Origin: a virus
Lineage: Duplodnaviria; Heunggongvirae; Uroviricota; Caudoviricetes
IMG/VR virus record: IMGVR_UViG_2537561932_000025
Location: 1-11,341 of that record
DNA length: 11,341 bases
Direction: 5' to 3' (one strand)
The notes under the pieces are model-generated. The model did not search any database, was not told where the DNA came from, and saw nothing but the letters and a program-made list of their open reading frames with translations. This document shows, one piece after another, positions 6,330 to 9,240 of the stretch. A program made the translations under genes and the position numbers. Position 1 is the stretch's first letter. Each line of letters opens with the position of its first letter.

Positions 6330-6494
6330 ATGAGAGGGCTTGCATACAATCCCGGCATTCTTCCGGCAGAAATGATTATTCGCCAACGCGTAAAGCCAAT
6401 GCCATCGAGAGAGGAATTGCTTAAGAGAAATTCTTTTCCATCAGTGAATCAAAACAAATATCTGAATGCGATGTGGCGGAGTGGGAAGAAATGA
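6330..6494 (+). CDS. Hypothetical 54-aa protein
   Basis: Below the track cutoff. Strong Shine-Dalgarno (aagagga). Its stop overlaps the start of the next ORF (ATGA at 6491-6494), suggesting translational coupling. Confidence 0.45.
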
Positions 6495-6997
6495 AACAAA
6501 TGTCACTAATTGAGATGGATGGATTTCTGAAAGGTAAATGCATCCCACGAGATTTAAAGGTTAACGAAACAAACGCTGAATATCTTGTGCGTAAATTTGC
6601 TGAAGCGGAGGCCAAGATTTCGGCTCTGTCCGAAGACCAACAGAGAGCGATTGAGTCAATTAAGCAGGCTGATTCGGTTGTTAAGTTGGCACACGAGAAG
6701 TTTTCAGCGCTGGCGGCGGAGAATGCGGTAATGCTCGAAACTATTGAAGCCGTTCGCAGTGTTGCGGATAACTCCAGTGGAATTGCCGGATGGCATTTGA
6801 ATGGCGATATCGCCACATGGGAAGAGATTCTTCCTGAAATTAACGATATCGAAACCCCAGCCACCGATGCTTTCCTGGCTGAAGTACGGGCGCAGGGGGT
6901 GGATACTTTCGGTGATTATTTAAACGGTCTTTTGTGGGATGACAAGGATATTAAAATAGTTCGTGAATTCGCCATACAGCTTCGCAAAGGATGGTAA
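6491..6997 (+). CDS. Hypothetical 168-aa acidic protein
   Basis: Same strand as the operon. ATG at 6491 with ggag 9 nt upstream; the track's GTG at 6473 is an upstream extension. The long opposite-strand ORF 6421..6864 overlaps it and is judged spurious. Confidence 0.6.
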
Positions 6998-7269
6998 ATG
7001 TATGAACATTCAACTGATACAACTAACACGTTTCCTCGTAACGGTTTGAAGTGGTCCGCACGAGATCTGGCGTTATTAAAAATTAATGCAGGAAAGATCA
7101 GTGCGGACGAAATAGCTATTACCTTCGCCGGGACGTTGAAGCAGTGCACATTAAAGCGTCACGTCTCGGTATATCACTGATAACCAATAAATGTAAACGT
7201 GGTCATGCGCGAGTTTACCAAAAAGGTAGATGGCGCTGTCCTGAGTGTAGAAAATTAAAAGGGTATTGA
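6998..7269 (+). pseudogene. Frameshifted paralog of the 5999..6313 protein with a C-terminal CxxxH...CxxC zinc-ribbon-like motif
   Basis: The first reading frame (6998-7180) gives ...LKWSARDLALLKINAGKISADEIAITFAG, then drifts to a stop. The continuation of the paralog alignment, RDVEAVHIKASRLGISLITNKCKRGHARVYQKGRWRCPECRKLKGY, is in the -1 frame from about 7129 to the stop at 7267-7269. This indicates an indel or a recoding site near 7126-7132. Confidence 0.5.
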
Positions 7270-7271
7270 AT

Positions 7272-7520
7272 ATGAGCACTAAACTTCAACTTGGTTTTTC
7301 ACCGCTATCAAAAACTATCATGCTGGCAAAAATGCGCGATGTTGAAGGTGGACGTATGCGCGTTGGCAATGATCCAGGTCGTGATGTTACCAATGAGGCT
7401 GCTCAATTGGTGTGGCGACTGGTCATGACTGAAGGTGGTGAGATCGCGTGGGAGCTGGATGATGGTTCTCGCATGGTGTTGAAGGCAGAAAAGCAGGAGG
7501 CAACCAGTGAGCAAGATTGA
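7272..7520 (+). CDS. Hypothetical 82-aa protein
   Basis: ORF on the operon strand starting at the ATG at 7272. Its 3' end overlaps the next gene. Confidence 0.5.
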   Translation: MSTKLQLGFSPLSKTIMLAKMRDVEGGRMRVGNDPGRDVTNEAAQLVWRLVMTEGGEIAWELDDGSRMVLKAEKQEATSEQD

Positions 7521-8088
7521 CTATCAGGCACTGCGTGAAAAGGCAGAGAAAGCAACGTGTGGTGTGTGGTCGCTCGAATATGGAGAGAGCCGATTTGATT
7601 GTGATGATGCGCTAATTCATCGTGACGTTGTTGGATATCTTCCCATTTGCAGAATTGAAGGAGCGCATCCTGAAAGCGGTTTCGATGAAGATTTCCAAAT
7701 GGAACAGCAGGCCAATGCTGAATTCATCGCTGCAGCCAATCCGGCTACCGTCTTGGCGCTGCTTGGCGAGCTGGAAGCAGCAAAAAAGCGCATTGCAGAA
7801 CTGGAAGCCGAACCTGTAAGCCAGGCTAACAAGTTGAACGAGCTGTCGGGCAACTCTCCGGTAACTCAGGATGGTTGGATAAGCTGTAGTGAGCGAATGC
7901 CTGAAAAGGGCCAGAACGTGCTTATTTCGGTGAATTTCGATAGCTCTCTGGTTGAACCGCTAATATGCTCCGCACGCTATACAGGAAGCACATTCCGGCG
8001 AGGAGAAGCAACGATTAAGCCGGGTAATGGAATTGAGCAGGCAACTCACTGGATGCCTCTACCAGAACCGCCGCAGGAGACAAAATGA
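7507..8088 (+). CDS. Ead/Ea22-like protein with a C-terminal DUF551-like domain
   Basis: GTG start preceded by aggagg with a 6-nt spacer. The N-terminal KIDYQALREKAEKATCGVWSLEY... and the coiled-coil AELEA segment resemble Ea22-family proteins of lambdoid phages. The C-terminal DGWISCSERMPEKGQNVLI...HWMPLPEPP resembles DUF551. Both assignments are from memory. Confidence 0.6.
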   Translation: MSKIDYQALREKAEKATCGVWSLEYGESRFDCDDALIHRDVVGYLPICRIEGAHPESGFDEDFQMEQQANAEFIAAANPATVLALLGELEAAKKRIAELEAEPVSQANKLNELSGNSPVTQDGWISCSERMPEKGQNVLISVNFDSSLVEPLICSARYTGSTFRRGEATIKPGNGIEQATHWMPLPEPPQETK

Positions 8089-8345
8089 TGGATGTAAAAG
8101 AGAAGGTATTGCAGGTGATACGTTCCCGTGCTGCCCTGCAAGAGAAAGCTCTCGGCGGGGAATATCCATTCACGATAGCAACCTGGAATCTGCGGTTGGC
8201 AATGGAGAAGGAATTTCCTGATGAAGAATGGCGTTCGGCAGATTTGCGCAAAATTCTTATGGAGATTGCTAAAGACGGAACAGTATCTAAAGATAAACAT
8301 GCCAGCCGGATTGGTCAGGCAGTATGGAGACTGGAGGAGCGGTAA
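8085..8345 (+). CDS. Hypothetical 86-aa protein
   Basis: The start overlaps the previous stop (ATGA); operon strand. Confidence 0.5.
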   Translation: MMDVKEKVLQVIRSRAALQEKALGGEYPFTIATWNLRLAMEKEFPDEEWRSADLRKILMEIAKDGTVSKDKHASRIGQAVWRLEER

Positions 8346-8629
8346 TGGCTAACCTGCAACTTGCCGTCAAAGGTGAATACTTCGATGCCATGATTCGCGG
8401 AGATAAAATGGAAGAGTATCGCCTGTGTAATGACTACTGGAATAAGCGAATCATGTTACGGGAATATGACCGCCTGATTATCACAAAGGGATATCCGAAG
8501 CGCGACGATTCCAGTCGCAGAATTGATGTTCCGTATGGTGGATATGAAATCAAGACAATCACACATCCGCACTTCGGTGATAAACCGGTAAAGGGGTTCG
8601 CGATAAAGGTGAATATCAGCAATGAATAA
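8345..8629 (+). CDS. Hypothetical 94-aa protein
   Basis: ATG at 8345 preceded by ggagg. The track's longer ORF from 8324 is an upstream extension. Followed by an intrinsic terminator. Confidence 0.5.
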   Translation: MANLQLAVKGEYFDAMIRGDKMEEYRLCNDYWNKRIMLREYDRLIITKGYPKRDDSSRRIDVPYGGYEIKTITHPHFGDKPVKGFAIKVNISNE

Positions 8630-8663
8630 CAATCCTCGCACTCGCGGGGATTTCTTTTATCTG

Positions 8664-8688
8664 AACTCGCTACGGCGAGTTTTGTTTT
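8664..8688 (+). terminator. Rho-independent terminator
   Basis: aactcgc-tacg-gcgagtt followed by ttgtttt. Confidence 0.6.
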
Positions 8689-8701
8689 ATGGAGATGATA
8701 A

Positions 8702-8869
8702 ATGCACTTCCGAGTCACAGGTGAATGGAATGGAGAGCCATTCAACAGAGTTATCGAAGCCGAGAACATCAGCGACTGCTATGACCACTGGATGCTGTGG
8801 GCGCAGATAGCACATGCAGACGTAACCAATATTCGAATTGAAGAACTGAAAGAACACCAAGCCGCCTGA
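8702..8869 (+). CDS. Hypothetical 55-aa protein (MHFRVTGEWNGEPFNRVIEAENISDCYDHWMLWAQIAHADVTNIRIEELKEHQAA)
   Basis: Below the track cutoff. Shine-Dalgarno ggag with a 6-nt spacer. The stop codon lies inside the loop of a downstream terminator hairpin. Preferred over the overlapping track ORF 8622..8810, whose translation is low-complexity and lacks a Shine-Dalgarno. Confidence 0.45.
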   Translation: MHFRVTGEWNGEPFNRVIEAENISDCYDHWMLWAQIAHADVTNIRIEELKEHQAA

Positions 8870-8882
8870 TGGCGGTTTTTTA
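8861..8882 (+). terminator. Rho-independent terminator
   Basis: gccgcc-tgat-ggcgg followed by ttttttatt. Confidence 0.65.
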
Positions 8883-8895
8883 TTGGAGACAAGAA

Positions 8896-9240
8896 ATGTC
8901 AGATTTGGCTATGAAGGTTTTGAAATGGCAATCAACTGGCGATGTAGGCATCAGTAGCGCAACTCTTGCCTCAATCGCATGTGGACTGAAAAAGAATATC
9001 TATGGTCATCACTTCGGCGCTCCACATGACGCAGCAGATTTCCGGCGATGCGTTGCACTTGTCGAGCAGATTCCAGAAATCAGAGATTCATTCGACAAGG
9101 TTGCAAAGCGCGTTCCGGCATTCAAAGGCATCCTCAACGAATGGGATCCCCTCGTTGCTCTGTTGAAGTCTGAAATGAAGATACACGGAAACAAAGCACC
9201 AGAGACTTACAGAAGAATCAGCGAGCTACGCAAGGACTAA
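8896..9240 (+). CDS. Hypothetical 114-aa protein
   Basis: ATG at 8896 preceded by ggaga. The track ORF starting at 8869 begins inside the terminator T-tract and is an artefactual extension. Confidence 0.55.
   Translation: MSDLAMKVLKWQSTGDVGISSATLASIACGLKKNIYGHHFGAPHDAADFRRCVALVEQIPEIRDSFDKVAKRVPAFKGILNEWDPLVALLKSEMKIHGNKAPETYRRISELRKD

Follow-up and report, generated by a model that had tools for sequence, protein, structure and literature searches.

The segment 6330-9240 of the window, as the complete 11,341-nt stretch of analysed viral DNA is termed here, was assigned to a lambda-like prophage, as the distal accessory part of its leftward early (pL) operon, a reading to which we give a probability of roughly 85%. 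With high confidence, the small, translationally coupled genes of the segment form a mosaic, and one of them has decayed through a 1-nt deletion. As judged from the sequence, ORF55 and ORF114 very probably constitute two discrete modules at its end, each with its own intrinsic terminator after it. The features on which this assignment is based are listed in Table 1.

Table 1. Features of the window and their coordinates.
Feature	Position	Strand	Details
pL-like promoter	2849-2877	+
nutL boxB	2933-2947	+
Lambda-type N gene	3253-3579	+	lambda arginine-rich N terminus
Further terminator-like hairpins	3960-4017		between N gene and small-ORF run
RecT gene	4610-5521	+
54-aa DUF2737 protein	6330-6494	+	Pfam PF10930, E 2.6e-31; phrog_1117; PGAP CDS
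168-aa protein like P22 EaE	6491-6997	+	phrog_614, E 3.6e-53
Frameshifted pseudogene of an 88-aa HTH-like and zinc-ribbon protein	6998-7269	+	no PGAP CDS
82-aa DUF7446 protein	7272-7520	+	Pfam PF24233, E 6.7e-19; phrog_1578
193-aa fusion, Ead/Ea22-like N-terminal and DUF551 C-terminal	7507-8088	+	Pfam PF13935, PF04448; phrog_60
86-aa protein	8085-8345	+	phrog_2814, E 2.8e-50, full length
94-aa protein	8345-8629	+	PGAP name 'ASCH domain-containing'; phrog_625, E 1.6e-48
Hairpin 1 and U tract	8631-8661 (stem 8631-8652)	+	-13.1 kcal/mol, z -5.5; overlooked in the earlier note
Hairpin 2 and U tract	8663-8692 (stem 8663-8682)	+	-11.9 kcal/mol, z -3.1; upstream terminator of the earlier note
ORF55 (55 aa), homolog of phage lambda orf55 (lambdap35)	8702-8869	+	phrog_676; ~96% DNA identity to lambda, 434, HK022
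Hairpin 3 and U tract	8859-8886 (stem 8859-8878)	+	-13.4 kcal/mol, z -3.4; downstream terminator of the earlier note
ORF114 (114 aa), homolog of phage 434 ORF114	8896-9240	+	SD GGAG at 8884-8887
t'I-like hairpin and U tract just before xis	9299-9323 (stem 9299-9314)	+	-8.1 kcal/mol, z -1.7; overlooked in the earlier note
TorI-type excisionase (xis)	9365-9565	+	PGAP 'response regulator inhibitor TorI'; final prophage gene ahead of csc locus

Prophage context and small genes of the segment

The chromosome of E. coli 503440 was found to be 100% identical to the window and to carry a lambdoid prophage there, for which PGAP gives the order CII, Cro, LexA-family repressor, N, RecT, small ORFs and TorI. 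The direction of pL corresponds to the + strand of the window, and lambda-type N, nutL and nutR were all present, with a nutR boxB found in addition to that of nutL. The segment is situated between RecT and xis, on the + strand and downstream of pL, nutL and N, and contains an Ead/Ea22-type gene, which places it in the exo-xis or ea class of regions. In phages such as P22 and lambda, this class comprises non-essential small genes that extend from the recombination genes to xis and are transcribed from pL and, like the window, it encodes Ead/Ea22-like, EaE-like, DUF551 and DUF2737 proteins. The earlier note had named the segment a 'lambdoid b2/ea-type accessory region'; the accessory pL region, with the recombination genes on one side and xis on the other, was borne out, but 'b2' is the wrong label. 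In lambda, b2 is located across att, on the opposite side from the exo-xis region. The correct label is exo-xis (lambda) or ea (P22).

A tRNA gene was not found in the window, and scans for repeats and for composition showed nothing unusual in this region except for a direct repeat that involves two of the hairpins (see below). The replication gene of the prophage carries an IS2 insertion, so that the segment may never reach productive expression in this strain. The module combination of the window as a whole was present in only two E. coli genomes; such rarity of one combination is normal for mosaic phages.

The run of small ORFs reported earlier (54, 168, 82, 86, 94, 55 and 114 aa) was recovered in full from the ORF list and from what RefSeq/PGAP annotates on the identical chromosome, and its tight packing was reflected by junction gaps of -17 to +16 nt from RecT to the 94-aa gene. 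Between the 54-aa and the 168-aa gene, stop and start codon overlap (ATGA). Around ORF55, ORF114 and xis, the gaps widen to 72, 26 and 124 nt. The previous description of the ORFs as uncharacterised held, as each of them matched a PHROG labelled 'unknown function', and no match was obtained with NCBIfam or, in a scan for defence systems, with PADLOC. A literature search with the DUF names and anti-defence returned nothing relevant, and none of the results bears on the suggested anti-defence or host-takeover role. For the 168-, 86-, 94-, 55- and 114-aa proteins, no meaningful Pfam match was obtained even at E ≤ 5, and hence the 'ASCH' label of the 94-aa protein comes from PGAP alone; PDB sequence searches with ORF55, ORF114 and the 94-aa protein gave chance matches only. 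The 168-aa protein shares 63% identity with a protein of phage Gally annotated as EaE, and the 82-aa DUF7446 protein is distantly paralogous, at 30% identity, to the product of 3590-3832. The predicted Ea22/DUF551-like protein was identified as the 193-aa fusion.

Alignment of the proposed pseudogene with the intact 88-aa genes of phages AVIO78A and PDP46, to which it is 96-97% identical, confirmed its decay, revealing one base to be absent between 7116 and 7117. It had also been called a paralog, but this part of the claim was weakened, as its similarity to 5999-6313 amounts to 41% over 27 aa.

Predicted terminator hairpins around ORF55 and ORF114

Both of the terminators that had been proposed to enclose the 55-aa ORF were found as hairpins with a U tract (hairpins 2 and 3). 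The additional, stronger hairpin 1 makes the upstream terminator of ORF55 a tandem pair. Hairpins 1, 2 and 3 have the form of an intrinsic terminator, i.e. a GC-rich stem followed by a U tract, with 8-9 pairs, 4-5 of them GC, and a T-rich tail directly after each stem. Hairpin 3 overlaps the stop codon of ORF55, with the TGA being located in the loop. The t'I-like hairpin ahead of xis is weak in the window; together with hairpin 3 it forms a 25-nt, 76% direct repeat that brackets ORF114. In total, 30 terminator-like sites were counted in the window versus 10.7 ± 3.0 in shuffles.

The suggested dependence on N-mediated antitermination is plausible, given that pL, nutL boxB and N are located upstream on the same strand, with terminator-like hairpins in between (Table 1). 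No promoter-like (sigma-70-like) site was found on the + strand between 5607 and 10012. We infer from this arrangement that transcripts terminate at the hairpins and that read-through depends on N. In the repressed prophage, or with RNA polymerase devoid of N, the five + strand hairpins in the last 700 nt would block stray transcription before it arrives at xis. Following induction, N-modified polymerase coming from pL past nutL would read through every hairpin, and ORF55, ORF114 and xis would then be expressed as delayed-early genes.

At the DNA level, the identity of the ORF55 cassette (8631-8886) to phage lambda orf55 (lambdap35, NP_597778), 434 and HK022 was ~96%. Hairpin 1 coincides with 't-L4' of M60848 (434) and with the 'tL4 terminator' of X51962 (HK022), and the t'I-like hairpin corresponds to "t'-I" of M60848 and also to a terminator in OL657226. 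The names tL4 and t'I were taken from GenBank feature tables; a literature search for tL4 returned nothing relevant. Hairpins 1, 2 and 3 are t3-lambda, t4-lambda and t5-lambda, respectively, which were predicted by ARNold within lambda's exo-xis region (Bloch 2014, Table 4; PMC4195576). The notion of an isolated or new unit around the 55-aa ORF was not upheld by these data, since the cassette is lambda orf55, whose flanking terminators were given names in, or predicted for, lambda, 434 and HK022 years to decades ago, and is thus real but already known. Being part of lambda itself and present in ~40% of complete E. coli genomes (2175 of 5426), it carries little weight as a discovery.

Lambda shares the three hairpins, the SD and the 55-codon gene, with homology reaching from a few bases before hairpin 1 to the T tract of hairpin 3. 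There, ea8.5 is located upstream of orf55 and lambda xis follows directly, whereas in the window the cassette is preceded by the 94-aa 'ASCH' gene and followed by ORF114 and a TorI-type xis. Phage 434 has the order t-L4, ORF55, ORF114, t'-I, xis, int; the order tL4-ORF55-ORF114-t'I is the same in HK022, and both phages are 94-96% identical to the window up to position 9333. Thereafter, 434 and HK022 continue into lambda-type xis and int, whereas the window switches just ahead of the TorI-type xis and int is not adjacent. In KplE1-type recombination modules, int is located at the opposite prophage end. A recombination module of the KplE1 type has been described (PMC2951348).

For comparison, 120 viral contigs with the cassette were examined, ~118 of which provided usable loci for hairpin and frame counts. 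On the left, homology of the cassette ended at the stop codon of the upstream gene, of which there were at least 10 different ones, and on the right at the T tract of hairpin 3. Downstream of the cassette, the first gene was lambda Xis at 55 of the 120 loci, TorI-type Xis at 41, ORF114 at 16 and another Xis-like HTH protein at 5; as in the window, ORF55 stood directly before xis, or was parted from it by ORF114 alone, at 117 of them. Two upstream hairpins and one downstream hairpin were present at 81 of the usable loci, and one of each at 16. These comparative data indicate that the modules of this mosaic stretch are bounded by terminators, with hairpin and T-tract sequences marking points of module exchange between phages, and that selection keeps a terminator directly before xis regardless of the type of Xis.

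The exact coincidence of homology boundaries with hairpins and T tracts, and the repeat flanking ORF114, would also be expected if the main role of the hairpins were to stabilise 3' ends of the polycistronic pL transcript or to serve as its processing sites, or if they were mere recombination linkers between modules, and read-through is anticipated anyway when N is present. However, every hairpin is canonical, with the U tract immediately following a GC-rich stem, and the original annotators called these hairpins terminators. Moreover, the stem variants of hairpin 1 (434-type, L022-type and L062-type) and the unrelated hairpin of locus L010, which takes the same position, all retain a stem and a T tract, which argues for selection on the terminator form and not on a recombination sequence. 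A chief role as stabiliser or linker was therefore judged to be unlikely, albeit with some probability left; it is compatible with termination at the hairpins and not exclusive of it.

Terminators on both flanks, sharply bounded mosaic behaviour and very wide distribution of the cassette raise the question of a moron, i.e. a self-contained unit that has a promoter of its own, is expressed from the repressed prophage and is insulated by terminators on both sides. A downstream terminator (hairpin 3) and presence or absence behind different upstream genes were indeed found, but a promoter of its own was not, the + strand being free of sigma-70-like sites over the range given above. Just 19 nt separate the stem of hairpin 2 from the ATG, and the best candidate promoter found by hand agrees at 7 of 12 positions and would produce a leader of 5 nt without SD. 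In diverged homologs, the gene is located inside overlapping gene runs that offer no space for a promoter. This makes it very improbable that ORF55 is a moron, and a module at the end of the pL operon is preferred.

Hairpin 3 over the stop codon was kept, with another loop, in 73%-identical homologs, namely a protein cluster carrying a Klebsiella name and a contig from a metagenome; such a loop difference with a retained stem was observed in the diverged homologs L130 and L131. The upstream pair is missing in L130, L131 and L132, implying that it belongs to the lambda-type cassette of E. coli and not to the gene family. This absence in distant homologs also bears on the small regulatory RNA that the earlier note had offered as an alternative, or on a cis-regulatory leader (attenuator), in either of which the 55-codon frame would be incidental. 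Three stable hairpins within 260 nt would suit such an RNA, as would the MFE fold, in which the SD region of ORF55 can pair with the flank 5' of hairpin 2 (~2 kcal/mol). Against it, no Rfam family was found at gathering score in the whole window, and 6200-9700 at E ≤ 1 gave only weak, sub-threshold chance matches (E 0.38 and 0.47), to rsmX at 22 bits (cutoff 56) and Leu_leader at 20.8 bits (cutoff 50), no promoter was found, and conservation is at the protein level, down to 38% identity with length, motifs and a confident fold kept. An RNA with an incidental frame is consequently the least credible of the readings and found no support. An attenuator with alternative structures was likewise rejected, because each hairpin of the upstream tandem folds on its own and no antiterminator structure competes with them.

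The ORF55 protein

There is little doubt that ORF55 is a real protein, small, acidic and with a predicted beta-beta-alpha-beta fold. Its match to phrog_676 (E 5.5e-40) covers residues 1-55 of 55, and the Shine-Dalgarno sequence of its own that had been assigned to it was found as GGAG at 8691-8694, 7 nt ahead of the ATG. The AF2 model has a pLDDT of 90.5 and the beta-beta-alpha-beta topology. The frame of 55 aa was intact in ~110 of 118 viral loci, and homologs at 38-52% identity retain the length as well as the W-N-G and E-A-E-D motifs. In the set of close relatives, 18 synonymous versus 26 non-synonymous distinct codon changes were counted, conforming with only a mild synonymous bias. Despite the abundance of Orf55, ORF114 and the small proteins next to them, they are filed in PHROG under 'unknown function'.

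T7 Gp2, an inhibitor of host RNA polymerase, was retrieved among the structural neighbours of ORF55, and lambda Orf55 has previously been proposed to be structurally analogous to it, including a speculative docking model for binding to the beta' jaw of RNA polymerase (Donaldson 2021; PMC8614690). Both are small acidic beta-beta-alpha-beta proteins, and the popular Gp2-like reading of Orf55 is based on a generic fold match. Orf55 most likely binds and modulates some host protein, which is a putative role. That it would specifically inhibit a host machine, e.g. RNA polymerase, as modelled by Donaldson 2021, or chromosomal replication initiation, is a distinctly doubtful proposal. Replication initiation was considered because of the lambda 'bin' phenotype, which has been linked to orf73, ea22, ea8.5 and orf55 (PMC9239242, citing Sergueev 2002). 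If Orf55 did inhibit such a machine, its almost constant position directly ahead of three unrelated kinds of Xis could mean a tie to excision and not operon geography.

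ORF55 and its flanking terminators

The ORF55 unit (ORF55 being a homolog of lambda orf55) is lambda's own, a textbook lambdoid feature annotated and published before. Megablast of 8600-9345 gave 95.8% identity to HK022 and 94.1% to 434, plus many Stx phages. Phage 434 (GenBank M60848) is annotated in the order t-L4, ORF55, ORF114, t'-I, xis, int, and a tL4 terminator is annotated in HK022 (X51962). In lambda, where the same gene is lambdap35, homology starts a few bases 5' of hairpin 1 and extends to the hairpin 3 T tract, beyond which the lambda sequence continues directly into pI and xis. 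Exactly hairpins 1-3 were predicted in lambda as terminators t3, t4 and t5 (Bloch et al. 2014, PMC4195576, Table 4), and Bloch et al. 2013 (PMC3824215), with reference to Sergueev 2002, name orf55 as one of the seven ORFs in lambda's exo-xis region. The novelty implied in the earlier note is unsupported.

Both hairpins between which that note had placed ORF55 (hairpins 2 and 3) proved to be real, with the ORF55 TGA inside the loop of hairpin 3. Its overall observation was correct but overlooked two further hairpins, namely the t'I-like hairpin and hairpin 1, which lies directly 3' of the 94-aa gene's stop codon and is stronger (z -5.5) than the two named. The tL4 features of M60848 and X51962 align to hairpin 1 and not to the hairpin chosen in the note. 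Within the final 700 nt 5' of xis, five + strand terminator-like hairpins were found, compared with none in the preceding 4.6 kb.

Hairpins 1 and 2 fold independently. The MFE structure computed for 8625-8700 contains a pairing (8657-8696) between the ORF55 Shine-Dalgarno (SD) region and the 5' flank of hairpin 2, with a gain of ~2 kcal/mol; this pairing is missing from the centroid structure and is probably insignificant.

Features of the early-left region and of the small-gene run (energies in kcal/mol)
Feature	Position	Strand	Remarks
nutR boxB	953-967	opposite to nutL boxB	
Promoter-like site	2849-2877		TTGACA-17-GATACT
nutL boxB	2933-2947		exact lambda match
54-aa ORF	6330-6494		Pfam DUF2737
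168-aa ORF	6491-6997		63% identity to protein annotated P22 EaE-like
82-aa ORF	7272-7520		Pfam DUF7446
193-aa ORF	7507-8088		Pfam Ead/Ea22 and DUF551
86-aa ORF	8085-8345		no Pfam family
94-aa ORF	8345-8629		no Pfam family
Hairpin 1	8631-8652	+	-13.1, z -5.5
Hairpin 2	8663-8682		-11.9, z -3.1
ORF55	8702-8869		no Pfam family
Hairpin 3	8859-8878		-13.4, z -3.4
ORF114	8896-9240		no Pfam family
t'I-like hairpin	9299-9314	+	weaker: -8.1, z -1.7
xis	9365-9565		TorI-type

Conservation and modular boundaries of the cassette

The 271-nt cassette was present (coverage of at least 80%) in 2175 of 5426 complete E. coli genomes. For comparison, 120 IMG/VR loci with an exact orf55 23-mer were collected, ~118 being usable. 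In 81 of these, terminator-like hairpins lie on both sides, two upstream and one downstream; 16 have one on either side, and just a handful have none. The stem of hairpin 1 was seen in at least five versions, all keeping the stem and the TTCTTTTATCT tail, and in one group of loci it is replaced by an unrelated GGAGC-TTCG-GCTCC-T7 hairpin. The retention of form while the sequence varies argues for selection on a terminator at this position. In six similar loci (L010 and five others), orf55 carries a premature stop at codon 8 (GAA to TAA); upstream of orf55, this subgroup has an unrelated terminator hairpin, GGAGCTTCGGCTCC, with a T7 run.

The gene 5' of the cassette is of at least ten kinds (e.g., Ea8.5, the 94-aa 'ASCH' gene, DUF551 proteins). 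On the 3' side, the next gene encodes lambda Xis in 55 loci and TorI-type Xis in 41; 16 loci have ORF114 there, and five have a different Xis-like HTH protein. The homology break falls exactly at the hairpin 3 T tract. At locus L130 (protein P0043, from a cluster named Klebsiella pneumoniae) and on metagenome contig L131 (P0045), the encoded proteins are 73% identical to ORF55 of the window; hairpin 3 still spans the stop codon but its loop differs, and the upstream pair is absent. A 45%-identical homolog lies inside an overlapping gene run, two genes 5' of an integrase, with no hairpins at its locus. The terminators are thus not intrinsic to the ORF55 gene; they are a property of its junction with the excision module in lambda-type phages.

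ORF114 is flanked by a 25-nt direct repeat (8861-8885 and 9299-9323, 76% identical) that consists of hairpin 3 and the t'I-like hairpin, and the sequence 3' of the t'I-like hairpin is that found directly 3' of hairpin 3 in phages without ORF114. This suggests that ORF114 and its terminator are a module that entered at the terminator, or that ORF114 arrived along with one. The 114-aa ORF114 start has a GGAG SD and is annotated in 434 and by PGAP. An alternative 123-aa start (8869-9240), whose ATG overlaps the ORF55 TGA in the hairpin 3 loop, is used by some gene callers (P0099, P0100, P0105).

ORF55 as a protein gene

The earlier note had offered an sRNA as an alternative, which is unsupported. 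No promoter-like site was found near ORF55, no Rfam family matched, and hairpins 1 and 2 fold independently, while the 55-codon frame is intact in ~110 of 118 loci. Among 1.84 billion representative proteins, a profile search found just 54 relatives. Some of these are 53-57-aa proteins, 38-52% identical, in which W9-N10, E19, E21-D22, D25 and the hydrophobic pattern are conserved. We therefore conclude that ORF55 encodes a protein, one of a small family of enterobacterial phages. The structure table for ORF55 listed PurS (6.6), ribosomal eL20 (6.3 to 6.1), RNAP epsilon (4.8), AcrIE2 (4.6), p56 (4.6), T7 Gp2 (rank 30, 4.5) and Dmd (4.2). The sole experimental lead found on Orf55 function comes from PMC9239242, which cites Sergueev 2002 in stating that orf73, ea22, ea8.5 and orf55 were jointly implicated in blocking host replication initiation.

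The source prophage and its early-left operon

Over its entire 11.3 kb, the window matches the chromosomes of E. coli 503440 and 503829 at 100% identity. PGAP places, in order, a phage replication gene interrupted by IS2; CII and Cro, then a LexA-family repressor resembling lambda cI; antiterminator N; a DUF7446 gene, then RecT and a Gp157-family gene; the small-gene run 6330-9240; a TorI-type excisionase; and the sucrose (csc) genes of the host. Leftward early (pL) transcription therefore runs along the + strand. The identity of the elements, their canonical terminator form, their conservation and the modular boundaries are shown here, as is the location of pL, nutL and N upstream of the ORF55 unit with no closer promoter. 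By analogy with lambda N antitermination, unmodified polymerase would halt at the hairpins, so that in a repressed prophage xis would not be transcribed from upstream; N-modified polymerase from pL would pass them and transcribe ORF55, ORF114 and xis as delayed-early genes. Reading the run as an accessory region with N-dependent expression is reasonable; the label 'b2' is unsupported.

All ORF lengths in the earlier note agree with the mechanical ORF list and PGAP, and its tight packing holds from RecT through the 94-aa gene (neighbours overlap or lie no more than 16 nt apart), with wider gaps (72, 26 and 124 nt) at ORF55, ORF114 and xis. The term 'uncharacterised' is accurate, yet every ORF falls into a known, widespread lambdoid family: all match a populated PHROG labelled 'unknown function', with zero NCBIfam or PADLOC matches for every ORF of the run. 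The 'paralog pseudogene' 6998-7269, left unannotated by PGAP, is a genuine frameshifted pseudogene, but its similarity to the 104-aa ORF 5999-6313 is just 41% over 27 residues. Compared with the intact 88-aa gene of phages AVIO78A and PDP46 (96-97% identical), one G is absent between 7116 and 7117; the intact protein has an HTH-like N terminus and a CxxC zinc-ribbon C terminus.

In window 1-560, an IS2 (IS3-family) transposase end adjoins the truncated replication gene (PGAP), and the prophage is therefore probably replication-defective. A 126-aa ORF (2073-2453) directly downstream of the cI-like repressor, at the position of lambda rexA/rexB, is followed by a strong terminator-like hairpin (2634-2655). 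Tandem + strand terminator-like hairpins (3960-3977 and 3998-4017) just 3' of the first DUF7446 gene, early in the pL operon, are by position analogues of the lambda tL terminators downstream of N. In 9365-11341 no integrase adjoins xis, which faces the 3' end of convergent cscB, and no tRNA gene was found in the window; in KplE1-type recombination modules, int would presumably be at the opposite prophage end. The two DUF7446 genes of the pL operon (3590-3832 and 7272-7520) share 30% identity. Just 5' of the run, the 104-aa ORF matches, at 100% identity, a protein of phage Gally that carries the annotation 'Anti-RecBCD protein 1, similar to P22 Abc1'; its Pfam scan gave a sub-threshold HTH_12 match only, and the Abc1-like label is putative.
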